Below, piece after piece: positions 9,158 to 46,678 of a DNA stretch of 64,000 bases. The position numbers and the translations under genes are program-made. Every line of letters begins with the position of its first letter. Within the stretch, counting starts at the first letter, position 1. This stretch comes from an uncultured Actinomycetes bacterium (lineage in GTDB: Bacteria > Actinomycetota > Actinomycetes > Nanopelagicales > Nanopelagicaceae): assembly GCA_903873185.1 (NCBI GenBank), contig CAIQNN010000036.1:3639-67638 (forward strand), in the 5' to 3' direction. A model generated the notes under the pieces. The model saw only the letters and a list, made by a program, of their open reading frames with translations. It did not search any database and had not been told where the DNA came from.

Positions 9158-9190
9158 GGGCTGATTGTGCCAGTTAACTCATCAGGTTAA

Positions 9191-10705: not shown

Positions 10706-10764
10706 GTAATTAACAGTAGACTCAGCACTACCTTTTCGACACTTGAAATGACGGGAATCACTTT

Positions 10765-11988: not shown

Positions 11989-11990
11989 CT

Positions 11991-14457: not shown

Positions 14458-14495
14458 CCCCCAGTCTTACCACGCATTAGGCAGTAAATGAAGGA

Positions 14496-32136: not shown

Positions 32137-33518
32137 CGTACCAATGTCCAGCGAGGGCCTGAGGGCGTATCTTCAATGAGTATTCCTAACTCTAAAATCT
32201 GATCGCGAATTGCGTCAGCTGCGGCAAAGTCTTTTCGGGCACGTGCTGCTTCTCGTTGGGCAAGTGCCAAACTAACCAAACCATCCATCGCTGAATGTGA
32301 AGAAGATTCATCTACCGCAAAGGCGGGATCAAATGGGTCGCAACCCAATATTTGAAGGGCGCCGCGAATTTGAGCGGCGGTGCTGGCAATCATGGCCAAG
32401 TCATTGGCGGTTACTGCAGTATTTCCTTGGCGAAGAAGTTCGGAAATTTCTGCCAGACCCGCAGGAACAGCAAGGTCATCATTCATCGCAGCAGCAAAGG
32501 CTGGAGAAATATCAGAACCTGGTTGCGCTCCTAAAAGTTCTTCGGCGCGAAATAGAAAGCCCTCAATACGACGAAAGTTAACTACGGTTTCTTCGAGCGC
32601 TTCAAAAGAAAATTCCATCATTGAGCGATAGTGCGCACTACCCAGATACCAACGAAGTTCGATGCCTCTGACCTTTTGAACAATTTCTGAAACTAGCAAT
32701 GAATTACCCAAAGACTTGCTCATCTTTTCACCAGAGGCGGTGACCCAAGCATTGTGCATCCAAACCTTTGCAAATCCCCAACCGGCAGATTGGGACTGCG
32801 CAATTTCATTTTCGTGATGCGGGAAAATCAAATCGAGACCGCCACCATGAATATCAAATTCTGCACCTAGGTATGCGTGGGCCATGGCGGAACATTCGAG
32901 GTGCCAACCAGGTCGACCAGGGCCCCAAGGCGTTGGCCAGGATGGATCTCCGGGCTTGGCGCCTTTCCAGAGCGCGAAGTCGCGGGGATCTTTCTTGAAA
33001 GTTTCTTCGGAATCGTCAGCTGATTGGAGATCATCCAATTTCTGATTTGAAAGCGTTAAATAGGATTTAAGCGAGCGCACTGATAGATAGACATCGCCGT
33101 TACCAGGCGCATATGCCGAGCCGTTATCAATCAAAATCTGCATGAGTTCGACCATTTGGGTGATGTGACCAGTAGCGCGCGGTTCATAAGTCGGGGACAA
33201 GACATTTAGCCGTTGATACGCCCAAGTGAATGCTTGCTCATACTTCATTGCAACTGCCCACCACGGAATATTTTCGTGAACTGCTTTATGCAAAATCTTG
33301 TCATCAATATCAGTCACGTTACGAATGAAAGTTACATCAAAGCCTTCATGCGTTAACCAGCGGCGCAAAATATCGAAGTTAACACCGCTGCGAATATGGC
33401 CAATATGTGGCGCTCCTTGAACAGTTGCACCGCAAAGATAAATGCTGGCTTTGCCGGGAAGCAGCGGAACGAATTCGGAGACTTCGCGAGTTAAAGTGTT
33501 ATAAAGATTTATTGTCAT
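32133..33518 (-). CDS. cysS: Cysteine--tRNA ligase
   Basis: 461 aa. HIGH motif (APHIGHIRSG), KMSKS present, Zn ligand context HLECSAM. Confidence 0.95.
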   Translation of the reverse strand: MTINLYNTLTREVSEFVPLLPGKASIYLCGATVQGAPHIGHIRSGVNFDILRRWLTHEGFDVTFIRNVTDIDDKILHKAVHENIPWWAVAMKYEQAFTWAYQRLNVLSPTYEPRATGHITQMVELMQILIDNGSAYAPGNGDVYLSVRSLKSYLTLSNQKLDDLQSADDSEETFKKDPRDFALWKGAKPGDPSWPTPWGPGRPGWHLECSAMAHAYLGAEFDIHGGGLDLIFPHHENEIAQSQSAGWGFAKVWMHNAWVTASGEKMSKSLGNSLLVSEIVQKVRGIELRWYLGSAHYRSMMEFSFEALEETVVNFRRIEGFLFRAEELLGAQPGSDISPAFAAAMNDDLAVPAGLAEISELLRQGNTAVTANDLAMIASTAAQIRGALQILGCDPFDPAFAVDESSSHSAMDGLVSLALAQREAARARKDFAAADAIRDQILELGILIEDTPSGPRWTLVR

Positions 33519-33991
33519 AACTTGGTCACCAATGCGCTGGCCATCACGAAAATTCCTTCGCCGCGTCCAGTAAAACCAAGACCATCAGTTGTCGTTGCTG
33601 CAATCGAAACGGGCGCACCCAGCGCTTCGGTAAGAATGGCTTGTGCTTCAGCTCGCCGCGGTCCAATTTTTGGTTCCACTCCAACGATCTGCAGCGCAAC
33701 GTTATTAATTGAAAAATTATTTTCGGCAACAAATTTTCGCAAGTGCTCCAGCATCTTTACACCTGATGCGCCGGCCCATTCCGGCCGATCAACCCCAAAG
33801 AGCTCACCGATATCGCCCAACTGGCAGGCAGATAGGACGGCATCACAGAGCGCATGGACTGCAGCGTCGCCATCGGAATGTCCGACCAAGACCCTAGCTT
33901 CTGGCCAAATTAGGCCAGCCAGATGGCAGGGCCCGCTCTGCCCGTATTGGTGGGCATCAATTCCGACGCCAGTTCGATGGTTATCGATCAA
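33515..33991 (-). CDS. ispF: 2-C-methyl-D-erythritol 2,4-cyclodiphosphate synthase
   Basis: 158 aa. GVGIDAHQY and GHSDGDAAVHAL. The TTG start (33991..33989) overlaps the ptsH stop (TTGA). Confidence 0.92.
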   Translation of the reverse strand: MIDNHRTGVGIDAHQYGQSGPCHLAGLIWPEARVLVGHSDGDAAVHALCDAVLSACQLGDIGELFGVDRPEWAGASGVKMLEHLRKFVAENNFSINNVALQIVGVEPKIGPRRAEAQAILTEALGAPVSIAATTTDGLGFTGRGEGIFVMASALVTKL

Positions 33992-34266
33992 TGATCAACG
34001 CTTTCCACGATTACTTTGAGCGCAGCGGCAACTGAATCTTCTTCTGGACCGTCTACTTGAACGACGATCTGGTCGCCGAACTTAACTCCAAGGGTCATCA
34101 CGCGCAGCACGCTGGCGCCATCGACCGCGGCGGATAGCTCCCCGCTCTCAGAAACCTTAGCCAAACTCACCTTGCAGCCTGAGCTTTTGGCGCTGGCAGC
34201 AAAAAGAGCGGCTGGGCGCGCATGGAGTCCTACGGCGGCGGCAACGGCAGTTCGAAATTCTTTCAT
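33988..34266 (-). CDS. ptsH: Phosphocarrier protein HPr
   Basis: 92 aa. Active-site His context VGLHARPAA. Confidence 0.88.
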   Translation of the reverse strand: MKEFRTAVAAAVGLHARPAALFAASAKSSGCKVSLAKVSESGELSAAVDGASVLRVMTLGVKFGDQIVVQVDGPEEDSVAAALKVIVESVDH

Positions 34267-34347
34267 GGGTAAATCGTATCTGTAACGAAAGTAGTGTTTA
34301 ATGTGAACATCTATTCAAGCACTTGCACGAATGTGAAAGTAGGGAAA

Positions 34348-35349
34348 ATGGTCGCACAGTCCTTATTGATGGGTCATCCGCTCTCTTCGCCGGATCATGC
34401 CCGCCATGCCTTGCTATATATGTATCGTATTCGCAAATTCGAAGAAGCAGTAGAAGATCTATTCGGACGCGGCATGATGCACGGCACAATGCATTTATCG
34501 ATTGGGCAAGAAGCAGGTCCTACTGGAATGTGTTTGGCACTTCGTTTGGAAGATCAAATTACCTCCACCCACCGCGGACATGGCCATTGCATTGCAAAAG
34601 GCGCTGACCTAACGCGAATGATGGCGGAATTATTGGGAAAGAAGATCGGTTATTGCGGTGGCCGTGGCGGCTCAATGCACATTGCCGACGCTGAAACCGG
34701 AAACCTGGGTGCTAATGGGGTGGTTGGTGGCGGTATCCCAATCGCGGTTGGCGCAGCGCTAGCTTCAAAAATGCAACATAAGGGCACAGTGGCGGTCTCC
34801 TTCTTTGGCGATGGCGCTATGAATGAAGGTGCCTTCCATGAAGCTGCGAACTTGGCTGCCATTTGGAAACTGCCCGTAATTCTCTTTTGCGAAAATAATC
34901 ATTACGGAATGAGCTCTTCGACCGAAAAGGCATTTGCAATTGATCGCTTGGCTGATCGTGGCCTCGGCTACGGAATTCCTGGTGTCACCGTGGATGGCAA
35001 TGACGTCGTTGCCGTTTATGAAGCCTCTGAAGCTGCAGTTGCCCGCGCACGAAATGGCGAGGGTCCAACTTTGATTGAAGCAATTACTTATCGTTGGAAG
35101 GGACATTCGCGCTCGGATAAGAATTTGTATCGATCTAAGGAAGAGATTGACGAATGGAAAGATTTAGATCCAATCCCGAAATTCATTCATCGCGTTCTGG
35201 AAGCGAATCTTTTGCGTCAGGATGAAATTGATGCAATCCAAAAGCAAGCGACCGATCAGATTATTGAAGCGGTTAACAATGCTGCCGCAGCTGAGTCGGC
35301 CGAACCTTCGGGATTGCTCGAGGCAGTATTTAAGGCGGTAAGCGCATGA
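34348..35349 (+). CDS. acoA: TPP-dependent acetoin-dehydrogenase-type E1 alpha subunit
   Basis: Start set at ATG 34348; the track's GTG at 34294 is less likely. AcoA-type motifs [22 protein letters not shown] and the TPP motif [19 protein letters not shown]. Confidence 0.85.
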
Positions 35350-36344
35350 GCGATCGTATGTTGACCATGGCCGAAGCTCTGCGCGAAGCAATGGGTATCG
35401 CGATGGAGGAACGACCAGAAGTGTTCATCCTTGGCGAAGATATTGGAATTTACGGCGGCGCATTTGGCGTTACCGGCGATCTTTACCATCGCTTCTCGCC
35501 GCTTCGGGTACTAGATACCCCAATTTCAGAATTAGGAATTGTTGGTGCTGCTGTTGGCGCAGCGCTCTCAGGTATGCGTCCCATAGTCGAAATTCAGTTC
35601 TCGGACTTCACGGCACAGGCAATGGATCAGATTGCAAACCAAGCCGCGAAGATTCACTTCATGCTTGGCGGGGCGTTGCATGTTCCCCTAGTTCTTCGCA
35701 CCCCACAAGGTTCCGGAACTGGCGCTGCTGCTCAACATTCGCAAAACTTAGAAACTTGGTTTGCCAACGTTCCTGGGTTAAAAGTGGTTGTTCCATCTAA
35801 CCCGGCTGATGCAAAGGGACTGCTTCTCTCTGCGATTGATGATCCGAATCCGGTTATCTTCCTGGAACACAAATTGCTCTACAAGATTCCTGGTCGTGAT
35901 CCAGTTCCGGAAGGCGCCATCCGAATTCCGCTCGGAGTTTCCAAAGTTGTTCGCACCGGAAAAGATCTCACTTTGGTTGCAACCGGAATTATGGTTAACA
36001 AGGCTTTCGAAGTTACCGAAAAGTTGGAAGCAGAAGGAATTTCAATCACGTTGATTGATCCGCGAACGATTTCGCCTTTGGATATGTCACCGATTCTTGA
36101 GTCGGTCGAAAAGACTGGTCGCCTTCTTGTAGTTCAAGAGGGTCCATCTCATGGTGGCTTCATCAACGAGGTCATTGCCCGCGTAAGCGAGAGTTCCAGT
36201 TTTGGTTCCCTCATTGCCCCAATAAAACGACTAGCGGGGATGAACATTCCAATTCCATATGCGCCACAACTAGAGAAGGCCGCCGTTCCGCAGGTAGCAG
36301 ATATTGAAGTTGCGGCCCGCAATCTAGTTAAGGAATGGCGATGA
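35346..36344 (+). CDS. acoB: Acetoin-dehydrogenase-type E1 beta subunit
   Basis: 332 aa with an ATGA overlap onto E1 alpha. Transketolase-like pyrimidine-binding and C-terminal domains ([16 protein letters not shown]). Confidence 0.85.
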
Positions 36345-37429
36345 GTTTCCGCTATCCAGTAGTCATGCCGAAGATGAGCATGACTATGGAGACCGGGGAA
36401 CTAATTCTCTATCACGTTAAACCTGGCGACCGGGTTAGCTCCGGCGATGTGCTCTTTGAAGTTATGACTGACAAGATCGATATGGAGGTTGAGGCTCCGA
36501 CTGATGGCGTCATCGAACAATTAATCGGGGAGATCGGCATCGATATTCCAATCGGTACCCCGGTTTTAATTATGCAGACTGATACCGAAGTCATGGCTTT
36601 TGATTTTGGCGGCGAAGCGCCAACCATCCCGGCTCCACCAGAGGCGATCGTGGAACCAGTTGTTCTTCCAGAGCCCGTAATAGTTCCAGAGCCAGTTGTT
36701 GTTCCCGAACCCGTAATAGTTCCAGAGCCAGTTCGAGCTGAAGTCGGCGTCAAAGCGGTACCAAAGGCTCGTATTGTGGCCGCCCAGAAGGGGATCGACC
36801 TGCAATCGGTTGTAGCGACCGGTCCAGATAACACCATTATGTTGGCTGATGTAACACAAATCCGACCATCGGATGAAATTCAGCGGCGCCAGAGCGCAAA
36901 TAAAGCGCTGATTGCAAAAGGCTTGGAAATGACGCGGTTAATTCCTCAAAGTTCGTTCTCGCGTACTGTCTCCACTTCGGTCGATACCGCAGCTTTGCTT
37001 GCCGCATGGGCAAGTGTCTTGCGTTCGCGCCCCGAGCTAAATATTTCTCCTAAAGATGGCAGCGAACTTTCCTTCGTGGGTGTAGCCGTAATTATCGAAT
37101 CAAAATATGGGAGCGCGCTGCCCGTATTTAAGGATCCGGATTTACTTGGCGCCCTTGAACTTTCGGAATTGGTTTCAACTACAACCAGCGCAGCTGAAAA
37201 TGGAAAAGTTCCACTTTCCATGTTGAGCGGCGCGACCACGATAGTCTTTGATCTGCGTCGCTATCACATGAGCGCCACCACGCCACTTCTATTCCCAAAT
37301 CAGCTGACCTCGATAACTGTTGGCGAAAATATTGATGGCACGCAAATCATTTCGCTGACAATTGATCTGCGTTATTGTGACTTTTATGATGGCGCACTTT
37401 TGCTCGACCACCTTATTTCCGTACTCTAA
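36341..37429 (+). CDS. Lipoyl-domain E2-like protein with a degenerate acyltransferase domain
   Basis: Lipoyl-Lys motif [12 protein letters not shown], a PEPV-repeat linker and a PSBD-like segment [16 protein letters not shown]. The C-terminal domain is short, and the canonical DHRxxDG reads [10 protein letters not shown] (His to Leu). ATG 36341 gives an ATGA overlap; ATG 36335 is the alternative. Confidence 0.75.
36668..36739 (+). repeat. Imperfect 2 x 36 nt tandem repeat in the E2 linker ([12 protein letters not shown] / [12 protein letters not shown])
   Basis: ccagagcccgtaatagttccagagccagttgttgtt followed by cccgaacccgtaatagttccagagccagttcgagct. Confidence 0.85.
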
Positions 37430-37444
37430 CGAAAAGAGATTTGC

Positions 37445-39139
37445 GTGATCGCTCTTAATGGTGTTGCCGCAAGCTCTGGTGCGGCGCTGGGACAATTCTT
37501 TCTGCTGACCACTGAAATACCAGCAACCTCCCCTGCACCATCATCGCTAACTCCTGACGAAGAAAAACGATCTCTGACTGCCGCTATTGAATATGTCGGC
37601 GCCGATCTATCCGAGCGAGCAGAGCGTTCAACTGGCGAACTTCGCGACATTTTGTTAGCGGTCAGCGAAATTGCAACTGACCCAGCGCTGATCGAAGAAG
37701 CTCACACTTTTATCGATCAAGGCCACACCGCCAGTTTTTCGATCTCGCAGGCAACCAATATCTTCAAAGAACTCTTGGAATCATCCGGTGGTTATCTGGC
37801 CGAGCGTGTAAGCGACGTCGCCAATATCTGCGATCGCATTCTCTGCCGAATCGCGGGCGTGGAGTATCCAGAAATTCCTCACTTCCAACAGCCAACCATC
37901 TTGATCGCTCGTGATCTCTCGCCAGCCGACACCACTGATCTGCAATCAGAACAGATCCTGGCAATAGTCACAGAGGGCGGTGGACCAACGAGCCATACTG
38001 CGATTATCGCCAGATCTCGCAGCATTCCGGCAGTTGTTGCTTGCCCTGGAATCGTGGAATATGCCAAATCCCATTACGGGCAACTGCTCGCAGTCGAAGC
38101 GACAACGGGCGAAGTTATCTTCGATCCACCAACTGAAATTCAAAGTCGAATCATCGCCAAGATCGAGCGAATTCGAAAACGAAAAGAGCAACTGGTCACC
38201 CGCACTCCCTTTGGCTACCAAACGGTCGATGGCCGGACAATCCCGATCTATGCAAATATCGGTCGAGTTGCAGATACCAAAGTTGCAATTGAAGCGGGCG
38301 CTGATGGTGTTGGGCTGCTTCGAACCGAACTTCTATATTTGGATCGCGCGACCGCGCCTTCACTCGATGAACAAATTGAAATTTATACCCAACTCTTCCA
38401 ACCATTCGCAAGCCAAAAAGTTGTGATTCGAACTCTGGATGCCGGCGCTGATAAGCCAATGGCATTTATCAATTTCGATGATGAACCAAACCCAGCACTT
38501 GGAGTTCGCGGCTACCGAACCATCCACGAGCACGAAGATCTCATGCGCGTTCAGCTTCAAGCAATTGCGACCGCAATCAAAAATACTGGAACCGATGTAT
38601 GGGTGATGGCCCCCATGATCACGCTTCCAGAAGAGGCCCAAAATTTTGTTGACCTTGCACGAAGCTTCGGAATCAAAACTGTCGGCGTAATGATTGAAGT
38701 GCCTGCGGCGATTTTTCACGCCGATGAGATAACTAAAATCTGCGATTTTGTTTCGATTGGCACCAATGATTTAGGACAGTATCTCCACGCCGCTGATCGC
38801 GAGTCAGCACCACTGGCAGGATTTAACGATCCATGGCAACCGGCATTGCTCCGAGCCGTTCATTTGGTAGCCCAAGCCGGACTTCGCAACAACTGTCCAG
38901 TCGGTGTGTGTGGCGAAGCCGCTTCAGATGCCGCGCTTGCAGCCGTTCTGGTGGGACTTGGAGTCTCCAGCCTCTCATGCAGCGTTTCGACCTTACGCGA
39001 CGTGGCAGCTGGCGTAACGGCCTTAAGTTTTTCCGATCTTCAATTGGCGGCGGTCGCTGCGCTTGGTGCGCCCACTTCGCAAACTGCTAAAAATTTGGCG
39101 AGGGAGCATCTTCTTGCCCTCGAAGAGTTAGGTTTATAA
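37445..39139 (+). CDS. ptsI: PTS enzyme I (PEP-protein phosphotransferase)
   Basis: 564 aa with a GTG start 15 nt after the E2-like stop. Phospho-His motif GGPTSHTAIIARS and PEP-utilizer motif SIGTNDLGQY. Confidence 0.92.
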   Translation: MIALNGVAASSGAALGQFFLLTTEIPATSPAPSSLTPDEEKRSLTAAIEYVGADLSERAERSTGELRDILLAVSEIATDPALIEEAHTFIDQGHTASFSISQATNIFKELLESSGGYLAERVSDVANICDRILCRIAGVEYPEIPHFQQPTILIARDLSPADTTDLQSEQILAIVTEGGGPTSHTAIIARSRSIPAVVACPGIVEYAKSHYGQLLAVEATTGEVIFDPPTEIQSRIIAKIERIRKRKEQLVTRTPFGYQTVDGRTIPIYANIGRVADTKVAIEAGADGVGLLRTELLYLDRATAPSLDEQIEIYTQLFQPFASQKVVIRTLDAGADKPMAFINFDDEPNPALGVRGYRTIHEHEDLMRVQLQAIATAIKNTGTDVWVMAPMITLPEEAQNFVDLARSFGIKTVGVMIEVPAAIFHADEITKICDFVSIGTNDLGQYLHAADRESAPLAGFNDPWQPALLRAVHLVAQAGLRNNCPVGVCGEAASDAALAAVLVGLGVSSLSCSVSTLRDVAAGVTALSFSDLQLAAVAALGAPTSQTAKNLAREHLLALEELGL

Positions 39140-39254: not shown

Positions 39255-40229
39255 GTGACGATTTTGAAGCAACGCGAAACGGAGCTCATCCTTCGCGCTG
39301 CCAGGCTCTATTACGAGGAGCATCAATCGCAAGACCAAGTCGCCTCCCTCATGGGAACCTCGAGATCGAACATTTCCCGCATGCTCTCCGATGCCAAGCG
39401 CCTGGGATACGTTGAAATTCGAGTCGTAGCCCCTATTACCCGCAACGAGGCGCTTTCATCGCAACTTCAGAATCTCCTGGGAGTCAAAGAGGTCCAGGTA
39501 ATAACCACGGATAAGAACGAACTTACCTTCAGCGCCGTCGGCCGCGCCGCAGCCACGACGCTCGTTAATAGCCTTAGTAACAATCAAACCATCGCGATCT
39601 CATGGGGCCGAGGTCTAGAAGCCACTGTCATAAATGTACGCAATGAAAGCTTTTCCGGCTTAAAGGTGACGCAGCTGATGGGCTCCCTCTCTTCGGTCAC
39701 CACCTCGGCCAGCGCCGAGGAAGTCGGTCGCAGGCTTGCTAAGAATCTCAATGCTCAGTTCATTCCTTTCCTGGCACCCGTCGTTGTCAGCAACTCCAAG
39801 ACCCGAGATTCCATGCTCGAAGAAGAGAGCATCGCAAAAACCCTAAAAATTGCCCGCAGTGCCGATATCGCACTTATCGGAATCGGATCTCGGACTTCTT
39901 CCTCTTCCGAAATGGTCTTTAGTGAATTTAAATTATCTAAGGCCGAAAAAGATGCGATCTATGACCGCTACGCCGGCGATGTAGCTGCCCGTTTTTACGA
40001 CATCAAGGGCCAAGCCCTAAATTCTAAAATGGATAAATGCGTACTTGGCTTAACGCTTGAAGAGATGTCGGCAATTCCAAAGGTGATCGCAGTTGCTTCT
40101 GGTGGCGAGAAAGTTCAAGGTGTAATCGGCGCAGCTCGTTCGGGAATGATCGATACGTTGATTGTTGACCTGGTCTGCGCAAATTCCATCATCAAATCCC
40201 TAGCCCCATCGGCGGTGAAGAGCGCGTGA
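39255..40229 (+). CDS. SorC/DeoR-type sugar-binding transcriptional regulator
   Basis: 324 aa. N-terminal HTH (QSQDQVASLMGTSRSNISRMLSDAKRLG) and a SorC-type sugar-phosphate-binding domain. Confidence 0.85.
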   Translation: MTILKQRETELILRAARLYYEEHQSQDQVASLMGTSRSNISRMLSDAKRLGYVEIRVVAPITRNEALSSQLQNLLGVKEVQVITTDKNELTFSAVGRAAATTLVNSLSNNQTIAISWGRGLEATVINVRNESFSGLKVTQLMGSLSSVTTSASAEEVGRRLAKNLNAQFIPFLAPVVVSNSKTRDSMLEEESIAKTLKIARSADIALIGIGSRTSSSSEMVFSEFKLSKAEKDAIYDRYAGDVAARFYDIKGQALNSKMDKCVLGLTLEEMSAIPKVIAVASGGEKVQGVIGAARSGMIDTLIVDLVCANSIIKSLAPSAVKSA

Positions 40230-40627
40230 CTTACTTAACCAAACTCCTTTTAGTTATCGCTGCAATGTGGGCATCGCAATTAGCGCTGGCTTACTTGCAA
40301 GCAAAGAAATTCCAAGCTGATCTCAGGTCGCTAAGACAATACGGAACCGTCGCCATTGGTATGGGTGGACGGCGTTATCGCGGTGGGCGGGCATTCGTTG
40401 CTCTGGCTGCCGATGAAAATGGCATGATCGTGACGGGATTGGTCCTTCGTGGGCTAACCGTTTTCGCGAAATCAAAGCCGCTCAATACCTACAACGGATT
40501 CTCACTGACCGACATAATCTCGGGTACCCGAGTTGTACTGGGTGAACCAAAGAAAGTGCAAGAGGCCACACAAATGGCAGCTCAGCACATTCAGGATCAT
40601 CTAGCACGGGTCGAGCAGGGAGAGTAA
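40226..40627 (+). CDS. gutM: Glucitol operon activator GutM-family protein
   Basis: 133 aa. One N-terminal TM, then ...LAYLQAKKFQ...GTVAIGMGG...RAFVALAADENG...GLTVFAK, matching the GutM family pattern. GTGA overlap with the SorC gene. Confidence 0.75.
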   Translation: MTYLTKLLLVIAAMWASQLALAYLQAKKFQADLRSLRQYGTVAIGMGGRRYRGGRAFVALAADENGMIVTGLVLRGLTVFAKSKPLNTYNGFSLTDIISGTRVVLGEPKKVQEATQMAAQHIQDHLARVEQGE

Positions 40628-40700: not shown

Positions 40701-41300
40701 GTGTTCCTGCATCAACTGATCACGCTATCAGCTGTAACAGTGGACAAACCAACGGGTGTTCTTGGCGCGTTGGCAACTGGCGCTGAAGACTTCATCAAGG
40801 TCTTCAACAAAGGTGGAACGGTTCTTCTCAGTCTTATGGGTGGAATCCTTCCAACGTTGATCGTTCTTCTGACTGCAGTAAATGCACTCGTAAGAATTAT
40901 CGGCGCAGAACGAATCGAAAATCTAGGCAAGGCTGCATCACGTCCTGGTCTCCAGTGGTATCCAGTTCGTTACATCATCCTTCCTTTTGTTGCCGTATTC
41001 GTTCTAACAAACCCAATGGCATACACAATGGGTCGCTTCCTTCCAGAACGCTTCAAGCCTGCGTTCTACGACTCCGCAGTTTCGTTTGTGCACCCAATCC
41101 TGGGAATTTTCCCACACGCTAACCCAGGTGAACTTTTCGTATACCTCGGTATCGCAACAGGTATCAAGGAACTCGGCTTCGGCTTGGGTGACTTGGCTAT
41201 CCGTTACCTACTTGTAGGTCTTGTTGTCATCTTCATCCGCGGAATCGTTACTGAACGAATCACCGCGCGAATGATGGCTAAAGCCGAAAGGAGTGCATAA
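40701..41300 (+). CDS. srlA: PTS glucitol/sorbitol-family EIIC component (SrlA-like)
   Basis: 199 aa. Collinear with E. coli SrlA as I recall it (FNKGG..., GRFLPERFKPAFYD, FPHANPGELFVYLGIA). Confidence 0.88.
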   Translation: MFLHQLITLSAVTVDKPTGVLGALATGAEDFIKVFNKGGTVLLSLMGGILPTLIVLLTAVNALVRIIGAERIENLGKAASRPGLQWYPVRYIILPFVAVFVLTNPMAYTMGRFLPERFKPAFYDSAVSFVHPILGIFPHANPGELFVYLGIATGIKELGFGLGDLAIRYLLVGLVVIFIRGIVTERITARMMAKAERSA

Positions 41301-41302
41301 CC

Positions 41303-41851
41303 ATGGAAGGTTTCACAAACTTAATCGTACGGATCGGCCGTGGCGTCGGTGGAGTAGTAGGAACTCTCTACCAGGCAGGTCGTGATTCGGTAGATACCGT
41401 AATCCGTAACGTCATTCCATTTATGGCGTTTATCTCCTTCATCATCGGTTTGATTCTGACAACCGGTATTGGTAACTGGATCGCTAAGGGACTAAAGGGC
41501 TCTGCCTCTTCACTTCCTGGCTTGCTACTTATCTCTATCGTCTGTGCAATTCCAATCCTGTCTCCTTTGCTTGGACCAGGTGCTGTTATTGCTCAGATCG
41601 TCGGAACCTTGCTCGGTGTTGAAATTGGTAAGGGAAATATCCCTGCGCAATACTCACTACCAGCACTATTCGCTATCAACCCACAGGTTGGTTGCGACTT
41701 CATTCCAGTAGGTCTAGCTCTCGGTGAAGCCGAGCCTGAGACGGTCGAAATCGGTGTTCCCGCGGTTCTGTTCTCCCGCGTTATCACCGGTCCATTGTCC
41801 GTAGTCATCGCATACTTCGCCAGCTTCGGCCTGTACCACACCAGTAAGTAA
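41303..41851 (+). CDS. srlE: PTS Gut-family EIIC' membrane domain (C-terminal half of SrlE as a separate gene)
   Basis: 182 aa. Matches the SrlE C-terminal part (LYQAGRDSVDTVIRNVIPFMAF..., LLGPGAVIAQIVG, LPALFAINPQVGCDFIPVGL). Confidence 0.85.
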   Translation: MEGFTNLIVRIGRGVGGVVGTLYQAGRDSVDTVIRNVIPFMAFISFIIGLILTTGIGNWIAKGLKGSASSLPGLLLISIVCAIPILSPLLGPGAVIAQIVGTLLGVEIGKGNIPAQYSLPALFAINPQVGCDFIPVGLALGEAEPETVEIGVPAVLFSRVITGPLSVVIAYFASFGLYHTSK

Positions 41852-41861
41852 GCACGATCGA

Positions 41862-41893
41862 AACCAAGGTGCGGGGCAACTCGCACCTTGGTT
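41862..41893 (+). other. Perfect 12-bp-stem hairpin inside the PTS operon
   Basis: aaccaaggtgcg-gggcaact-cgcaccttggtt, 11 nt after the EIIC' stop and with no following U-run. A 137-nt AT-rich gap precedes the EIIB gene. Confidence 0.6.
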
Positions 41894-41988
41894 ATCGCAA
41901 GGCAGTACGTTGAAACTCACATCCAAATTTAATTTTTACAACATATTCTTGGTTATCAAGATTCTTAACTAGTTCAAGGAGAACAAAA

Positions 41989-42360
41989 ATGGGCGAATAC
42001 AAGAGCGTCACTATTTCAGCCGGACGAGGCGGTTGGGGCGGTCCACTAACCATCACACCTACCGATGAAAAGCCGTACATCTATTCGGTAACCGGTGGCG
42101 GTATTCACGCTGTTGCGCAACGCATCGCCGACATTACCGGTGGAATTCCTTTCGATGGTTTCAAGAGCAGCGTGCCCTTCGACAAGATTGCCGTTGCCGT
42201 TATCGACTGTGGTGGAACTGCTCGAGTTGGCGTTTATCCAATGAAGAAAGTTTTAACCGTTGATATTCATGCGACCAGCCCTGCCGGACCGCTCGCCAAC
42301 TTTATTACCAAAGAACTCTTTGTCTCTGGCGTAAAAGCGGATGACATAAAGGAAGGTTAA
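41989..42360 (+). CDS. srlE: PTS Gut-family EIIB domain (N-terminal half of SrlE as a separate gene)
   Basis: 123 aa. GRGGWGGPLTITP and the phospho-Cys context VAVIDCGGTARVGVYP (E. coli: VAVIDCGGTLRCGIYP). Confidence 0.88.
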   Translation: MGEYKSVTISAGRGGWGGPLTITPTDEKPYIYSVTGGGIHAVAQRIADITGGIPFDGFKSSVPFDKIAVAVIDCGGTARVGVYPMKKVLTVDIHATSPAGPLANFITKELFVSGVKADDIKEG

Positions 42361-42363
42361 GTT

Positions 42364-42732
42364 TTGTCTAATCTTGTCTATGCAACAACCATTACAGCAG
42401 TTGGAGAACTTGTTCCCGATTTTCGGGAACAAGGAGTCTTGGTCTTCTTTGGTGAAAATGCACCCATTGAGCTTCACGAATTTTCAATCCTTCACAAACC
42501 TGATGTCGAAGTGCGAGCACCACTAACCGGTGACACCATTCGATTATCAAATAATGCATTTAACGTTTTAGCTGTGGGATCGGTCGCCAGCGACAACTTG
42601 CTCAACCTTGGCCACCTGGATCTAAAAGCAAATGGTCTTCCCGAGGCAGAGCTGCCTGGAGATGTAAACGTAGAAGCAGGCGAATTACCGATGGTCAAAG
42701 TAGGCGACCGTCTTGAAGTTTTTTCCGCCTAA
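42364..42732 (+). CDS. srlB: PTS glucitol/sorbitol-family EIIA component
   Basis: 122 aa with a TTG start. AVGSVASDNLLNLGHLDLK parallels E. coli SrlB AVGSVAEDNLRELGHVTLR (phospho-His). Confidence 0.85.
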   Translation: MSNLVYATTITAVGELVPDFREQGVLVFFGENAPIELHEFSILHKPDVEVRAPLTGDTIRLSNNAFNVLAVGSVASDNLLNLGHLDLKANGLPEAELPGDVNVEAGELPMVKVGDRLEVFSA

Positions 42733-42771: not shown

Positions 42772-44064
42772 GTGGCATATTCCTCGAAACTCAAAGCGCA
42801 CGCTGAAAAGCTGGGCCGCGATGTAAAAATTGCATTAGTGGGCGCTGGCCAGATGGGCCATGGTTTTGGCTGCCAAGTAGATCGCATGCCTGGTTTAACC
42901 GTCTCGCTAGTAATAGATATCGATCCGGCTCGAATTATGGCGCTTTACGCTGACTTAGGTGAAAACAATCCAGTAATCAGCACCGACCAAAATGAAATTG
43001 CGGCAGCGATTTCTGCCGGCAAGCGAGTCGGAACCACCACCTCTGCATTCCTATCAGAACTGCCAATCGACTTTGTTGTCGAAGCAACTGGTGTCCCAGA
43101 AATTGGCGCCCAAATCACTTACTCCTGCTTAAAAGCCAAGATGGATGTCGCCGTATTGAATGTCGAAATGGATGTAACCATTGGGCCGCTGCTTCATAAA
43201 ATTGCGGTCGAAAATGGCGTGGTTTACACCGTCTGCCATGGCGATGAGCCAATTGAAGCCAAAGTGCTAGTTGACTTTGCGCGCGATCTAAATTTTGAAG
43301 TTATCGCCGCCGGCAAAGGCAAGAACAATCCATTTGAACCGCTCAGCAACCCTGATTCAGTTCGGGCAACTGCAACTGCAAAAAACATGAACCCAAAGAT
43401 GCTTTGTTCTTTCACTGATGGCTCAAAGACCATGACCGAGATGGTGGCGCTTTCAAATACCACCGGCATTCCGCTTTCAAAGCGTGGAATGAACGGCCCA
43501 GCTGCCACTGTTAAAACCCTTCAAAATGTCTTTGCTCCCAAAGAAGATGGTGGAATTTTGGATAAGAAGGGTGTCATCGATTATTGCACTGGCGATGTTG
43601 CCCCTGGTGTATTCGTCATCGTAAAGAGCGATTCCAAATACATCAATCATGAGATGAGCTACCTAGGTATGGGCCCTGGCCCTTACTTCGCGCTCTACCG
43701 TCCGTATCACTTAGCTTCGGTTGAAGCTCCACTATCGGTCGCCCGAGCTGTTGTAGACCGTGAGTCATCGCTATTCGCTACTCACTTAATCTCTGAAGTT
43801 GTAGCAATGACTAAAAAGGATTTAAAAGCTGGCGACAAGATCGACGGCATTGGTGGCTACACCGTTCGTGGTTACGCCGACATCGCCGCAGATGCCCGTC
43901 GCGATAATTTGGTACCGATTGGGCTGATTCAAAATGCGATTGTCAAAAACGATGTTCCAGTTGGAACACTTCTGACTTACGATGATGTAGAACTCGATGC
44001 AACTAGCTTGATAGTGAAACTGCGCAAAGAACAAGACGATATGGGCCTCACCTACGCTAGCTAA
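42772..44064 (+). CDS. NAD(P)-dependent oxidoreductase, homoserine-dehydrogenase-like Rossmann domain plus C-terminal SAF domain (COG4091-type)
   Basis: 430 aa with a GTG start. KIALVGAGQMGHG dinucleotide fold and a SAF-like C-terminal region (KKDLKAGDKIDGIGGYTVRG...VPVGTLLTYDDV). Occupies the operon position of SrlD. Confidence 0.7.
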   Translation: MAYSSKLKAHAEKLGRDVKIALVGAGQMGHGFGCQVDRMPGLTVSLVIDIDPARIMALYADLGENNPVISTDQNEIAAAISAGKRVGTTTSAFLSELPIDFVVEATGVPEIGAQITYSCLKAKMDVAVLNVEMDVTIGPLLHKIAVENGVVYTVCHGDEPIEAKVLVDFARDLNFEVIAAGKGKNNPFEPLSNPDSVRATATAKNMNPKMLCSFTDGSKTMTEMVALSNTTGIPLSKRGMNGPAATVKTLQNVFAPKEDGGILDKKGVIDYCTGDVAPGVFVIVKSDSKYINHEMSYLGMGPGPYFALYRPYHLASVEAPLSVARAVVDRESSLFATHLISEVVAMTKKDLKAGDKIDGIGGYTVRGYADIAADARRDNLVPIGLIQNAIVKNDVPVGTLLTYDDVELDATSLIVKLRKEQDDMGLTYAS

Positions 44065-44369
44065 TCGGTTTCTTCTTTAGGATCTGGAATATGGCTAGTT
44101 AGTCCAAGCTCTTCCATTAAACGTCGCTGGCGTTTGGTTAGCGGGTCGCGAACCTTCTTGGGTTTTGCGGCCCGTTCGCTTTGATTAACTGAAACTTCGT
44201 CGTGAACAACTGGCCGATTCCCTCGCAGCCCAAGCTCTTCCATCAATTCCTCTTGGGCTGGCGTAAATAGCCCCTGAGAGCTCCGCTTTGCAGCATGTTT
44301 TGCCTTTATCTTTGCCGCTCGCTCTTCTGGAGTGTGCTGGGCAAAGCCAAATTTGCTCCGAAGTGACAT
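44061..44369 (-). CDS. Small highly charged protein with two LMEELGL repeats
   Basis: 102 aa. TPAQEELMEELGLRG and TKRQRRLMEELGLTS. Lys/Arg/Glu-rich with no TM segment. Confidence 0.55.
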   Translation of the reverse strand: MSLRSKFGFAQHTPEERAAKIKAKHAAKRSSQGLFTPAQEELMEELGLRGNRPVVHDEVSVNQSERAAKPKKVRDPLTKRQRRLMEELGLTSHIPDPKEETD

Positions 44370-44395: not shown

Positions 44396-45097
44396 ATGAA
44401 ATCCGAAATGCGCGTTGCGGTAGTGGTTCTCGCCGCCGGCTCGGGTTCGCGTTTTGGACATGTAACTAACAAGGTCTGGTTGCCTCTGAGCGGACGACGA
44501 ATCATCTCCCGATCCATCGCAAACGCCGCCAGGAGCTTCCGTGGCTGCCGAACCATTTTGGTGATCAGTCCAGATGATTCCGAACTCGCCCGTGCCACCT
44601 TGGAGCGCGAAGTTTCTAACATCACCGTTGAAATAGTTCTCGGCGGGGCAACTAGGCACGACTCGGAATACCGAGCGCTTCAATACTTGGCGCCGCAAAT
44701 CGAAGCTGAGGAAATCAATGTGGTCCTGATTCACGACGGTGCTCGGCCTTTGGCGACCAGTTCGCTCTTCAAGAAGATTGCCGAGGCGGCACATCGTCAC
44801 GGAGGTGCACTTCCTGCAATTCGAGTCTCCGCAAAAGAGATGGATATTCAAAGCAACGAAGTGGTCGTGCGGGTCCAAACCCCACAGGCCTTTTCGGCGC
44901 AGGAACTGCTAACGGCGTATCGTCAGGCTTTCATAGATAACTTTCATGGCACCGATACCGCCGCCTGTATGGAAAAATATTTTCCAGATATTCATACAAT
45001 GGCAGTCTCAGGTGAAGTTGCCAATGTGAAAATTACCTATCCCCAAGATTTAGCGATTGCCGAACATGTTTTAGAGAAGCGGAGGTACAAAGATTGA
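44396..45097 (+). CDS. ispD: 2-C-methyl-D-erythritol 4-phosphate cytidylyltransferase
   Basis: 233 aa. VLAAGSGSRFG, VVLIHDGARPL, VQTPQAF, NVKITYPQDL. ATG 44408 is an alternative start. Confidence 0.9.
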   Translation: MKSEMRVAVVVLAAGSGSRFGHVTNKVWLPLSGRRIISRSIANAARSFRGCRTILVISPDDSELARATLEREVSNITVEIVLGGATRHDSEYRALQYLAPQIEAEEINVVLIHDGARPLATSSLFKKIAEAAHRHGGALPAIRVSAKEMDIQSNEVVVRVQTPQAFSAQELLTAYRQAFIDNFHGTDTAACMEKYFPDIHTMAVSGEVANVKITYPQDLAIAEHVLEKRRYKD

Positions 45098-45405
45098 GCA
45101 ACGAAGAGCTCGATGTGCCACTTCACTGCACGCAATGTCAACAAGAGACAGTGCATCACCTTCGCTATGCCGGCCGACTCTTGGTATCCACAACCTGTTC
45201 AATCTGCAAAACGCAGGTAAAGCATGAAGATCATGATTTGCGTCTCCATTACACAAAAGATCTACAGCATCGAATTGCTACGAAACCTTGGCGGCTTTGG
45301 AAGCGATTTTGGCGGGCACCAAAGGCGGTCTTCTGGTCCTTTCCAAAGAAAGCGCTAGGGCAACCATTCAAGATTTGGCGCGAGTATCGCAATATTGGGC
45401 GCTAG
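45094..45405 (+). CDS. Small zinc-ribbon protein with a basic Trp-rich tail
   Basis: 103 aa. CTQC...CSIC pairs. The TTG start overlaps the ispD TGA (TTGA). Confidence 0.5.
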   Translation: MSNEELDVPLHCTQCQQETVHHLRYAGRLLVSTTCSICKTQVKHEDHDLRLHYTKDLQHRIATKPWRLWKRFWRAPKAVFWSFPKKALGQPFKIWREYRNIGR

Positions 45406-45421
45406 TTATTAAGATCAGACT

Positions 45422-46678
45422 GTGCCTAATGAGAATTTCAAACGCCAGTTTCCGCGCCCTAAAGATCTAACTCCACTTCTTCAATTTCAACTTCCCACAA
45501 TTCACCGAAAGCGGCGCCGGCTGGAAAAGGCGCTTACGATCTGGGACCTTCGAGAGATTGCAAAACGGCGAACCCCAAAGGGACCATTTGATTACACCGA
45601 TGGTGCCGCCGAGACTGAAGTTAGTTTGGAACGTTCACGTCAGGCATTTCTAGATATTGAATTCCAGCCCAATATTTTGCAAGACGTTTCCAAGATCGAT
45701 ATGTCGCGTAAAACGTTGGGGGAAACCTTCGCCTTACCTTTTGGCATTGCTCCGACGGGTTTTACTCGAATGATGCACTCCGAAGGTGAACGTGCTGGCG
45801 CTCGCGCTGCCGAAAAATTTGGCATTCCATTCACACTTTCAACACTTGGAACAACAACAATCGAAGATGTAGTTGCAGCCGCTCCCAATGGCACCAATTG
45901 GTTCCAGTTATATATGTGGAAAGACCGCGAAGGCAGCATGGCATTAGTTGAACGTGCGCAAAAGATGGGCGTTAAGAATTTAATGTTGACGGTTGACGTT
46001 CCAGCCTCCGGTTACCGAATGCGCGATTACCGAAACGGCTTGACTGTGCCACCGCGATTAAATGCATCCACGATCGCCAACGCGCTACCCCGCCCGGAAT
46101 GGATTTGGAACTTTCTCACCACCCCGCCGATTAGTTTTGCCTCGTTATCAAACTGGCCCGGCACCGTTGGTGAGTTATTGGATTACATGTTCGACCCAAC
46201 CATGACATTCGAAGATTTGAAATGGGTGCGCAAGCAGTGGAAGGGTACTTTGACCATCAAGGGTATTCAAACGCTCGAAGATGCAAAGCGCTGCGCCAAA
46301 TATGGGGTAGATGCAGTGTTGCTTTCAAATCACGGTGGCCGCCAGCTTGATCGTGCGCCAGTTCCATTGCATTTGTTAGGAGCAGTTCGTAAGGAGCTAA
46401 AGAGCGACCTCGAAGTTCACTTGGACACCGGCATCATGCACGGCGCCGATGTTTTGGCGGCTATCGCTCATGGTGCGCAGTACACCTACGTTGGCCGCGC
46501 TTATCTCTATGGCTTAATGGCTGGTGGTCAAGAAGGCGTAGAACGTGCACTTGAGATCATGAAGACTCAAATGGCTCGTTCCATGAAATTGTTGGGTGTC
46601 AGTTCATTGGATGAATTAGAACCCAAGCACGCAAAATTCTTGGCTACCCATCAAGGTCTTGGATCACTGCCGAAGTAA
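45422..46678 (+). CDS. FMN-dependent alpha-hydroxy-acid oxidase/dehydrogenase (LldD-like)
   Basis: 418 aa with a GTG start. Signature SNHGGRQLD and a TIM-barrel FMN dehydrogenase layout. Confidence 0.85.
   Translation: MPNENFKRQFPRPKDLTPLLQFQLPTIHRKRRRLEKALTIWDLREIAKRRTPKGPFDYTDGAAETEVSLERSRQAFLDIEFQPNILQDVSKIDMSRKTLGETFALPFGIAPTGFTRMMHSEGERAGARAAEKFGIPFTLSTLGTTTIEDVVAAAPNGTNWFQLYMWKDREGSMALVERAQKMGVKNLMLTVDVPASGYRMRDYRNGLTVPPRLNASTIANALPRPEWIWNFLTTPPISFASLSNWPGTVGELLDYMFDPTMTFEDLKWVRKQWKGTLTIKGIQTLEDAKRCAKYGVDAVLLSNHGGRQLDRAPVPLHLLGAVRKELKSDLEVHLDTGIMHGADVLAAIAHGAQYTYVGRAYLYGLMAGGQEGVERALEIMKTQMARSMKLLGVSSLDELEPKHAKFLATHQGLGSLPK

Follow-up and report, generated by a model that had tools for sequence, protein, structure and literature searches.

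A catalytically degenerate E2-like lipoyl protein in an actinobacterial cluster with DXR-II and PTS genes, and its possible part in DXP formation

We analyzed a stretch of 64,000 nucleotides (the window) from an uncultured member of the Nanopelagicaceae, in which an E2-like lipoyl protein lies between the genes for E1 alpha/beta and that for PTS enzyme I (EI). The question raised by this locus is what an E2-like protein without its catalytic histidine does in such company. A sequence-only reading had proposed that the protein is an E3BP-like lipoyl carrier or scaffold instead of an acyltransferase, and that an unusual operon fusion couples PEP-derived pyruvate to E1. The relevant context was missed in that reading: DXR-II and ispD/ispF close by, and a genome with neither dxs nor dxr. 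The features, with coordinates in the window, are as follows.

33515-33991, minus strand: ispF, flank of the inserted block (TIGR00151, 152 bits)
33988-34266, minus strand: ptsH (HPr), with the GLHARPA His15 motif (PF00381, 68.9 bits; TIGR01003, 70 bits)
34348-35349, plus strand: TPP-dependent E1 alpha (PF00676, 302 bits; TIGR03182, 356 bits, below the cut-off of 394)
35346-36344, plus strand: E1 beta (PF02779 and PF02780; 280 bits to Geobacillus PdhB, PDB 1W85/3DUF)
36341-37429, plus strand: E2-like protein, predicted to be catalytically dead, consisting of the following four parts
36341-36586, plus strand: lipoyl domain (PF00364, Biotin_lipoyl, 52 bits)
36593-36745, plus strand: flexible Pro/Val/Glu-rich linker with PEPV repeats (pLDDT <50 at residues 85-135)
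36749-36865, plus strand: PSBD (PF02817, E3_binding, 31.5 bits against a cut-off of 23.7)
36872-37426, plus strand: degenerate CAT-fold core domain (orthologue-anchored alignment; Foldseek matches to E2 cores)
37445-39139, plus strand: ptsI, PTS enzyme I (TIGR01417, 366 bits, above the cut-off of 341.7; PF05524, PF00391, PF02896)
39255-40627, plus strand: SorC-family regulator (39255-40229; PF04198, 183 bits) and GutM activator (40226-40627; PF06923, 76 bits)
40701-42732, plus strand: Gut-family PTS enzyme II (PF03608, PF07663, PF03612; TIGR00849), made up of EIIC (40701-41300), the C-terminal half of EIIBC (41303-51), the N-terminal half of EIIB (41989-42360) and EIIA (42364-42732)
42772-44064, plus strand: DXR-II / DRL-type DXP reductoisomerase (310 bits and 40% identity to Brucella DRL, PDB 3UPL/3UPY)
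44396-45097, plus strand: ispD, full length (TIGR00453, 151 bits)
45094-45405, plus strand: conserved Cys-rich protein of 103 aa (synteny)

Domains and active site of the E2-like protein

The E2-like gene starts with ATG at 36341, in an ATGA overlap with the E1 beta stop, and ends with TAA at 37427-37429; the MSF start is common to the protein and its homologues. Pfam matches and the structural model bore out the lipoyl domain, PEPV linker and PSBD recognized earlier from the letters alone. The lipoyl domain contains a lipoylatable lysine, Lys45 (codon 36473-36475), in a TDK motif, and T43, D44 and K45 were invariant in 30 sequences. The linker varies in length across the family, and the PSBD helices occupy residues 141-150 and 168-172 of the model. 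The C-terminal domain is about 185 aa long, close to the 190 aa first estimated.

This C-terminal domain scored 22.5 and 23.3 bits against 2-oxoacid_dh (PF00198), which is borderline at a cut-off of 23, and matched positions 63-180 of the 232 in the profile. In the orthologue-anchored alignment, DLRYCDF fell without gaps on DHRVADG of the true orthologues; therefore, the catalytic His is replaced by Leu343 (37367-37369) and the Gly of the DG motif by Phe348. The sequence-only reading was right about the His-to-Leu change but not about the extra residues that it placed in the motif, as the YDGA three residues further on only mimics DGA. That reading had also missed the loss of the catalytic Ser/Thr-Asn pair, where Phe303-Asp304 (37247-37252) stands in place of the expected GGTFT[IV][ST]N motif. 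Both the His-to-Leu and the Ser-Asn-to-Phe-Asp replacements were invariant in 30 family members, and the Gly-to-Phe change is invariant too. Alignment with the orthologues showed three further deletions, namely of a beta-hairpin, of some of the N-terminal helix region and of the C-terminal tail. Because both catalytic residues have been lost, it is predicted that the protein cannot act as a normal CoA acyltransferase.

The AlphaFold model had a pLDDT of 77 overall and of 80-94 in the C-terminal domain. Foldseek searches with this model returned E2 catalytic cores (target-normalised TM 0.6-0.69, E 1e-11 to 1e-13), and the domain is predicted to keep the CAT-like fold. We found more than 1000 homologues, and dN/dS relative to the closest orthologue was 0.02 in the lipoyl domain, 0.08 in the PSBD and 0.08 in the C-terminal domain, indicating that the observation is not due to chance. 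We regard the protein as a working pseudo-enzyme because strong purifying selection acts on all three domains. With a lipoyl domain, a PSBD and a His-less core domain under selection, it has the make-up expected of an E3BP-like subunit, and these data support the original proposal of a conserved lipoyl- and PSBD-bearing scaffold analogous to E3BP.

Eukaryotic E3BP (protein X) likewise combines a lipoyl domain, a PSBD and a CAT-fold core without the catalytic His in a structural or carrier subunit, and the E3BP structures 6H60 and 7R5M were among the fold matches. However, common descent with E3BP was rejected: the proteins nearest to the E2-like one are the catalytic E2s found in the actinobacterial cluster to which it belongs, so the loss occurred independently. 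The E2-like protein also differs from E3BP in that the hairpin and C-terminal tail are deleted and that no catalytic E2 is encoded beside it. In the PDH/ODH supercomplex of Corynebacterium glutamicum, E2 cores are trimer-only and one enzyme borrows the lipoyl domains of another in trans. AceF cores from this AceF/OdhA supercomplex (PDB 6ZZI etc.), which belongs to the same phylum, were among the fold matches too; that system has a catalytic domain without lipoyl domains, whereas the present one has a lipoyl protein without catalysis.

The E2 orthologues of Kocuria, Streptomyces and others keep DHR, and the His loss is therefore derived in Planktophila-type Nanopelagicaceae. PF00198 scores decay from 181 bits in Kocuria to 104 in Streptomyces, 78 and 37 in other Nanopelagicales and 22-35 in the E2-like protein. 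Across the actinobacterial clusters, identity is 61-69% for E1 and just 28-35% for E2.

The conserved cluster around E1 and the E2-like protein

A cluster of a Gut-type PTS, DXR-II, E1 alpha/beta, E2 and usually ispD adjoins ispD/ispF in Actinobacteria, often immediately upstream of ispD-o103-ispF. It is conserved in Streptomyces, Tamaricihabitans, Acidothermus, Kocuria, Cryobacterium, Brachybacterium, Micropruina and Propionicimonas, and ispD and the 103-aa Cys-rich protein travel with it throughout the Actinobacteria. This combination of sugar-alcohol importer, DXR-II and E1 genes is undescribed, and the E2-like protein is, judged by its sequence relationships, the degenerate E2 subunit of the cluster.

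For E1 alpha, the longest open reading frame starts at 34294, and the 333-aa homologues favour a start at 34348. The protein retains its TPP motif (GDG...NN) and, within GHS, the catalytic His, and is 61-66% identical to the cluster orthologues of Streptomyces and Kocuria. E1 beta has kept the Glu that activates TPP as well as the catalytic His, and conservation is strong at the two lipoyl-directed His of E1. An invariant cluster-specific loop of E1 alpha, TYRW[KR]GHS[KR]SDKN[LR] (L in 21/22), sets basic residues beside the catalytic His (GHS[KR]SDKN, against GHSMSDPG in human PDHA1), a weak hint that the substrate may be phosphorylated. Membership of E1 alpha/beta in the DXS family was rejected (TIGR00204: 70 bits for E1 beta and 21 bits for E1 alpha against a cut-off of 466); if E1 does act like DXS, this would be a case of analogy and not of homology. 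With a heteromeric TPP-dependent E1 and a lipoyl E2 in the order E1a-E1b-E2, the locus resembles acetoin dehydrogenase (AcoA/AcoB/AcoC/AcoL), which cleaves a methyl ketol and not a 2-oxoacid, the chemistry proposed here for DXP. In contrast to that system, the cluster holds no acoL/lpd, its E2 is dead, its setting is Gut-PTS/DXR-II/ispD, and its substrate is one that we infer.

The sequence-only reading had noted that the window lacks lpd, and the best TIGR01350 match in the 64 kb indeed reached only 58 bits, with the cut-off at 409. On another contig, a true lpd (490 bits) adjoins a canonical housekeeping E2; this shared copy elsewhere in the genome explains why the cluster has no E3. AceE, LipA, LipB and canonical E2s are also encoded in the genome and, with Lpd, are available for lipoylation and trans-unloading.

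The ptsI gene starts with GTG at 37445, 15 nt past the E2-like stop and in the same orientation, as was read at first, with an AAGAG ribosome-binding site ahead. The short gap and the absence of a terminator favour co-transcription of the two genes; at 37362-37390 there is a weak resemblance to a promoter (9 of 12). The product has the GGPTSH active-site motif and all three EI domains of a PTS enzyme I. The ptsH gene diverges from E1 alpha and overlaps, with its 3' end, the start of ispF. The enzyme II genes resemble the enterobacterial srl/gut sorbitol PTS operon in their Gut-family GutM, EIIC, EIIBC and EIIA; however, an SDR-type sorbitol-6-P dehydrogenase is absent, SrlE is split and permuted, and DXR-II, E1 alpha/beta with the E2-like protein, EI and HPr are added.

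DRL is the last gene of this PTS operon and is linked to E1 alpha/beta-E2, unlike Brucella abortus DRL. Its product conserves K191, K193 and T229, which anchor the substrate, the dimer residues R320 and Y322, and G121, has Asn for H250, and is identical at 22 of the 28 DXR-II-diagnostic positions, which places it within DXR-II / DRL; the 2013 DXR-II set contained no actinobacterial members (PMC3847144).

Distribution of dxs and the two DXP reductoisomerases

Searches of the whole genome recovered ispD, E, F, G and H. They gave no dxr, no HMG-CoA reductase and no dxs, for which the best match (70 bits) was E1 beta of this locus. We then counted these genes in 151 related genomes; the counts for dxs and DXR are not phylogenetically independent, with about 4-5 loss events underlying them. 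DRL occurred without DXR-I in 34 genomes and DXR-I alone in 115, with both in one and neither in one whose contig ends there (Fisher p = 2e-31); this genomic complementarity shows DRL as the apparent replacement of DXR-I among the relatives. On the same non-independent sample, dxs was absent from 10 of 18 carriers of the E2-like gene, and at most 1 of the 133 genomes without that gene lacked it (Fisher p = 4e-10); the losses of dxs are spread over at least three clades. It was also missing in 5 of 8 other cluster-carrying Nanopelagicales MAGs, which were reached through their loci and may be incomplete. All 17 DRL-only genomes keep dxs, adjacent to DRL in two of them. As dxs is also kept in 8/18 block carriers, the block of E1 alpha/beta and the E2-like protein alone does not make dxs dispensable.

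Planktophila warneckei RE-8, with a closed genome of 1,409,984 bp, carries the cluster and lacks dxs and dxr. It was isolated by dilution-to-extinction in defined media whose listed compositions contain no methylerythritol, deoxyxylulose or sorbitol (PMC12381374); a catalase preparation, not a chemically pure ingredient, was part of the defined medium. Since the listed media supply none of these compounds, DXP must be made inside the RE-8 cell.

A possible route to DXP and its alternatives

We hypothesized that E1 alpha/beta interconverts DXP with GAP and a C2 unit and thereby replaces DXS, with the E2-like protein as its lipoyl and docking scaffold; we give this a probability of roughly 45%. 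E1 would act at the DXP node as acetoin dehydrogenase does on acetoin. The PTS would import a polyol, our best guess being 2-C-methyl-D-erythritol (ME), which would enter as MEP and be oxidised to DXP by DRL; the substrates of both the PTS and E1 are ones that we infer. When the polyol is available, the lipoyl arm of the E2-like protein would receive the acetyl unit from E1, and the housekeeping E2 and Lpd encoded elsewhere would then unload it in trans. In the absence of polyol, E1 would decarboxylate pyruvate, hydroxyethyl-TPP and GAP would give DXP, and DRL and IspD would take this into the MEP pathway. With DXP made by E1 and with DRL and IspD at hand, dxs and dxr could be lost. The E2-like protein would be an E3BP-like carrier and E1-docking scaffold but no enzyme. 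A conserved lipoyl domain and lipoyl-directed His would be needless in a pure DXP synthase; therefore, oxidation must retain some importance, and for this a putative trans-acting transferase would be required.

Reportedly, Yokota and Sasajima saw 1-deoxyketoses formed by PDH and acetoin dehydrogenase in 1986. Like DXS and the E. coli AceE suppressors, E1 is a TPP enzyme that would turn pyruvate into hydroxyethyl-TPP and could add it to GAP; here, however, such a replacement would occur naturally, through a heteromeric enzyme tied to a lipoyl protein. Point mutants of aceE (PDH E1) rescue dxs loss in E. coli (PMC3424233). AceE could similarly be an alternative source of DXP, in which case the association with the block needs another cause. 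Somewhat more tentatively, E1 alpha/beta docked on the E2-like protein may be the physiological DXP former in dxs-less Planktophila-type freshwater actinobacteria, derived from an undescribed ME-degrading pathway with two steps reversed.

Alternatively, E1 and the E2-like protein may be purely catabolic and break down a PTS-derived compound (e.g., ME via MEP and DXP to GAP and acetyl), with the E2-like protein as an E3BP-like carrier feeding the housekeeping E2/E3 and dxs loss offset otherwise, e.g., by AceE side activity. Most orthologues outside the Nanopelagicales retain a catalytic E2, and in Brachybacterium hainanense the cluster occurs in a genome that encodes HMG-CoA reductase but lacks dxs, where it seems unlikely to serve MEP-pathway isoprenoids. 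The conserved lipoyl domain and lipoyl-directed His, and the presence of AceE, a canonical E2 and Lpd, agree with catabolism as well. However, AceE is probably universal, and the restriction of dxs loss to block carriers would go unexplained, as would the DXP supply of RE-8 in ME-free medium. We consider this reading unlikely, though a serious candidate.

The dxs-less strains might also be salvage auxotrophs that import MEP (from methylerythritol) or DXP (from deoxyxylulose) through the Gut-type PTS, with E1 and the E2-like protein taking no part in precursor supply. The sorbitol PTS of Salmonella reportedly takes up methylerythritol (Testa et al. 2004), a precedent for salvage and for the proposed route alike; the PTS accompanies the block in every dxs-less genome, and the variant without EII genes (L081 / G085) retains dxs. 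Against this, RE-8 was isolated in media listing no such compound, and DRL, which ME salvage alone would not need, is retained in all assessable dxs-less genomes. Such auxotrophy appears rather improbable.

The coupling first proposed, in which EI-made pyruvate is channelled to E1 with the E2-like protein as a bridge, did not hold up. The 15-nt junction speaks for it, as does the position of ptsI directly after the E2-like gene in 40 of 49 species-level loci, and a DXP-forming E1 would probably take its C2 unit from pyruvate. However, in the other 9/49 loci (one genus-level clade) SorC directly follows the E2-like gene and ptsI is on another contig; in the same cluster of other Actinobacteria, ptsI either stands between EIIA and DRL, follows DRL, or is missing altogether. 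No domain or motif suggesting an interaction was found, and ptsI encodes the sole EI in this genome and in each carrier genome examined. Because it is the sole EI and stands beside HPr and a complete Gut-type EII, ptsI is the general PTS component of the cluster and no special partner of E1, and we consider the coupling very improbable. That the E2-like protein is a functionless decaying remnant, as its missing catalytic residues, deletions and threshold PF00198 score might suggest, deserves hardly any credence, since the selection analysis already contradicts it: the dead domain has a dN/dS of 0.08, dozens of residues stay invariant across more than 1000 homologues, and the frame is intact throughout.

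The organisms that carry this cluster with the E2-like gene are abundant freshwater actinobacteria, often without the normal first two genes for isoprenoid precursors.

The catalytic domain of the E2-like protein

The E2-like lipoyl protein (E2*) is encoded in a same-strand run with genes for a TPP-dependent E1alpha and E1beta (together E1ab) and ptsI, and an HPr gene lies upstream of E1alpha in divergent orientation:

34348-35349, same strand as E2*: E1alpha
35346-36344, same strand as E2*: E1beta
36341-37429 (+): E2*
37445-39139, same strand as E2*: ptsI, encoding PTS enzyme I (EI)

E2* starts at ATG 36341 in an ATGA overlap with the E1beta stop, and the GTG start of ptsI, preceded by the ribosome-binding site AAGAG, follows the E2* TAA by 15 nt, as the sequence-only reading had stated. 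In Pfam searches, the lipoyl domain scored 52 bits and the PSBD 31.5 bits; the E2 catalytic domain matched only at threshold (22.5 bits vs a cut-off of 23; profile positions 63-180 of 232). In PDB sequence searches, the N-terminal half aligned to PDH E2 and E3BP, whereas the C-terminal half barely aligned. An AlphaFold model from 30 family members (pLDDT 77; C-domain 80-94) is predicted to keep a CAT-like E2 core fold, with Foldseek E values of 1e-11 to 1e-13 and target-normalised TM scores of 0.6-0.69 to E2p, E2o, E2b and E3BP cores.

We aligned E2* with same-cluster orthologues of other Actinobacteria and two canonical E2s of the same genome. DHRVADG of the orthologues paired gap-free with DLRYCDF of E2*, placing Leu343 at the catalytic His and Phe at the Gly of DG; Phe303-Asp304 occupied the Ser/Thr-Asn of GGTFT[IV][ST]N. 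In the Azotobacter enzyme, the replaced residues correspond to Ser558 and His610 (entry titles 1DPB/1DPC/1DPD), and both replacements are invariant across the E2* family. The catalytic His is therefore gone, as first proposed, and the "extra residues" once seen at the motif are not real: YDGA merely happens to come after DLRYCDF. E2* has also lost its C-terminal tail, a beta-hairpin and some of the N-terminal helical region. E2* is not a decaying protein, because it has >1000 homologues, dozens of invariant residues within the dead domain, and dN/dS values against the closest orthologue of 0.02 (lipoyl), 0.08 (PSBD) and 0.08 (C-domain). This constraint, together with the replacement of both catalytic residues, supports the proposed scaffold role, and its automatic annotation as "pyruvate dehydrogenase E2" is misleading. 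E2* is likened to E3BP, as a new bacterial variant of E3BP-type pseudo-E2.

PF00198 scores dropped stepwise among cluster E2s, from 181 bits in Kocuria, 148 in Tamaricihabitans and 104 in Streptomyces (Ser already gone) to 78 and 37 in other Nanopelagicales (His retained, Ser and DG gone) and 22-35 in E2*, indicating that the pseudo-enzyme state of E2* is derived. Identity across actinobacterial clusters was 61-69% for E1a and E1b and only 28-35% for E2. Streptomyces cluster E2s (loci L100-L103 and L093, Streptomyces sp. 8N114) carry Tyr-Asp where the catalytic Ser-Asn is expected, and that of L093 reads DRR in place of DHR, an independent loss of His.

The absence of an E3 gene from the 64 kb held, and the genome search proposed with it found lpd outside the window (490 bits, adjoining an E2 with two lipoyl domains) as well as LipA and LipB; therefore, E2* can be lipoylated and could share E3. 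The genome also encodes a second canonical E2, an OdhA-type fusion and AceE (1394 bits); with AceE, a canonical E2 and Lpd present, E1ab-E2* as the housekeeping PDH of the cell is ruled out.

Gene neighborhood and related clusters

Judged from spacing, E2* and ptsI are likely co-transcribed; a consensus scan of the junction gave no decisive promoter or terminator signal and one weak promoter-like match inside the E2* 3' end. ptsI directly follows E2* in 40 of 49 species-level loci, with gaps of ~14-67 nt; in the other nine, all of one clade, SorC follows E2* and ptsI is on another contig. In homologous clusters of other Actinobacteria, ptsI lies between EIIA and DRL (a DXR-II-type DXP reductoisomerase), lies after DRL, or is absent. 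Each E2*-carrying genome examined has exactly one EI. In the window, ptsI is accompanied by genes for HPr, SorC and GutM and by all components of a Gut-family EII, and its product is the PTS enzyme I of the cluster. The functional coupling of EI to E1 that had been suggested is not supported, given this variable position and a sole EI beside a complete PTS, and we found nothing pointing to a specific EI-E1 coupling.

The genes further downstream are as follows:

41303-41851: membrane half of a SrlE-type EIIBC
41989-42360: EIIB half of the same
42772-44064: DRL, last gene of the PTS operon
44061-44369 (-): charged 102-aa ORF, antisense between DRL and ispD
44396-45097 (+): ispD, full length
45094-45405 (+): o103, a 103-aa Cys-rich, zinc-ribbon-like protein
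45422-46678 (+): FMN-dependent alpha-hydroxyacid dehydrogenase, LldD-like
46679-47353 (-): degenerate IspD-like gene

DRL matched Brucella DRL (3UPL/3UPY) at 310 bits and 40% identity, conserved K191, K193, T229, R320 and Y322, and was identical at 22/28 DXR-II-specific positions (Carretero-Paulet et al., PMC3847144). ispD comes after DRL and ispF flanks the opposite side. Related genomes without the block have ispF beside (dxs)-DRL-ispD; the block, made up of HPr and E1a-E1b-E2*-ptsI-SorC-GutM-EII, is an insertion that separates ispF from DRL. In two DRL-only relatives (G058:C19:13421-16644 and G063:C9:24069-27265), dxs lies immediately upstream, forming a compact dxs-DRL-ispD operon.

Of the two IspD-like genes, that after DRL (151 bits to TIGR00453) likely encodes the working IspD; that in the ancestral carD-ispD slot matches at 47 bits over residues 95-177 only. 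o103 has no family match and travels with ispD and the cluster in Kocuria, Tamaricihabitans and Acidothermus (two ispD-o103 pairs in Acidothermus). The 102-aa ORF, also without a family match, shows 40-60% identity in most Nanopelagicaceae loci and is absent from loci of the g4 type. EIIBC is split and permuted, membrane half first, in the same order as in related Nanopelagicaceae loci; more distant Actinobacteria have EIIC-EIIBn-EIIBCc. Only in this genus does the ispD-o103 pair precede the alpha-hydroxyacid dehydrogenase gene, whose product scores 298 bits against PRK11197.

We scanned one genome per species for the cluster. A common set of EII, DRL, E1a, E1b, E2, SorC and HPr, often with ptsI, ispD and the 103-aa protein, was found in Streptomyces, Tamaricihabitans, Acidothermus, Kocuria, Cryobacterium, Brachybacterium, Micropruina and Propionicimonas, frequently fused to ispD-ispF-cysS. 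Brachybacterium hainanense (locus L109, genome G164) has EII-DRL-E1ab-E2 with DHR in its E2, an HMG-CoA reductase (279 bits) and no full dxs; it is probably a mevalonate-pathway organism, which would fit a catabolic origin of the cluster. The groundwater MAG at L081 (G085/G151, ~8000-17000) has the block without GutM and all EII genes, in the order HPr, then E1a-E1b-E2*-PtsI-SorC-DRL-IspD, and retains dxs, split over two contig ends. At L037 (G138, of the g12 genus), HPr lies beside ispF, E1ab-E2* and the EII genes are missing from the site, and dxs is retained, an arrangement that looks like a block deletion. Accession arithmetic and locus-tag annotation suggest a putative DXR-II beside a sorbitol PTS in Listeria. 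Neither the cluster nor methylerythritol catabolism nor Nanopelagicales without dxs was described in the literature that we searched.

Loss of dxs and the source of DXP

The genome of the window (97.7% complete) has ispD, ispE, ispF, ispG and ispH, and we found in it no dxr, no HMG-CoA reductase and no dxs, for which E1beta of this locus matched best, at 70 bits vs a cut-off of 466. Among 151 genomes of the same family, 34 had DRL only, 115 the usual DXR-I only, one both and one neither (contig edge), an almost perfect exclusion (Fisher p = 2e-31). dxs was absent from 10/18 E2* genomes and from at most 1/133 genomes without E2* (Fisher p = 4e-10, with few independent loss events behind it); the losses are spread over at least three clades. 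It was kept in the remaining 8/18 carriers and in 17/17 DRL-only genomes. Among more distant Nanopelagicales MAGs with the cluster, 5/8 lacked dxs.

The dxs-less carriers include three closed isolate genomes. One is Planktophila warneckei RE-8 (G013, OZ248350.1), obtained in defined artificial lake-water media through dilution-to-extinction; among the ingredients listed for these media are sugars, amino acids, organic acids, vitamins and catalase, and methylerythritol, deoxyxylulose and sorbitol are not among them (PMC12381374). Therefore, DXP in RE-8 must be made endogenously and independently of DXS, and we consider a natural DXS bypass probable in the dxs-less carriers. AceE could be an alternative source of DXP, as point mutants of E. 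coli aceE rescue dxs mutants (PMC3424233). Salvage of methylerythritol by the PTS as the sole cause of dxs loss is disfavored by the defined media of RE-8 and by the fact that DRL is retained throughout. A motif scan for other DXP routes (RuBisCO-like protein, RibB, YajO) found none, a weak negative since it used regular expressions only. A mevalonate bypass lacks its enzyme, HMG-CoA reductase being found in 0/16 dxs-less genomes. Loss of the E2 His is no precondition for dxs loss: the five dxs-less MAGs keep DHR in their E2 (catalytic Ser gone), and five His-less carriers of another genus retain dxs.

A candidate route at the DXP/MEP node

The context of E2* points to an undescribed pathway at the DXP/MEP node. 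E1ab is the only enzyme of the block with suitable chemistry: its TPP motif, its activating Glu and the two His that serve in reductive acylation of lipoamide are all retained. Like acetoin, DXP is a methyl ketol, and PDH and acetoin dehydrogenase have both been reported to form 1-deoxyketoses. An acetoin-dehydrogenase-type E1 would split DXP into hydroxyethyl-TPP and GAP; reversal of this split, primed by pyruvate decarboxylation, is the DXS reaction. A PDH-type E1 is capable of it, as the rescue of E. coli dxs mutants by aceE point mutations shows. The E1alpha loop next to the catalytic His is cluster-specific, invariant and basic (GHS[KR]SDKN vs GHSMSDPG in human PDHA1), which hints weakly at a phosphorylated substrate.

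On the simplest reading of the full cluster, the PTS would import a polyol, DRL would oxidize MEP to DXP, E1ab-E2-E3 would cleave DXP, and IspD would draw MEP into isoprenoid synthesis. Methylerythritol is our best guess for the polyol because the Salmonella sorbitol PTS reportedly imports it and DXR-II interconverts MEP and DXP. In Nanopelagicales, the E2 transferase decayed and E1ab and the lipoyl arm were kept. E2* would then act as lipoyl carrier and E1-docking scaffold, and the housekeeping E2/E3 would take off any acetyl load in trans. Since the lipoyl system is strongly conserved, the oxidative half-reaction probably remains important. Without polyol import, E1ab would supply DXP, which would have allowed the loss of dxs. 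We infer this mechanism as a whole from gene content and sequence comparison.

If true, E2* would be the counterpart of E3BP in bacteria, a lipoyl scaffold and pseudo-enzyme of independent origin, and the series from Kocuria through Streptomyces and other Nanopelagicales to Planktophila shows a multienzyme core being dismantled while the swinging arm is kept. The physiological setting of DXR-II would be a pathway around DXP and MEP that is linked to a PTS. DXS is regarded as universal at the entry to the MEP pathway, where it controls flux, and as an antibacterial target. A lineage with the MEP pathway and without DXS, DXR-I or the mevalonate route would represent a third way into isoprenoid synthesis, and pathway reconstructions would misleadingly label the MEP pathway of such genomes incomplete. 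The Planktophila-type lineage is among the most abundant lake bacteria, and with RE-8 as a cultured representative the bypass is directly testable.
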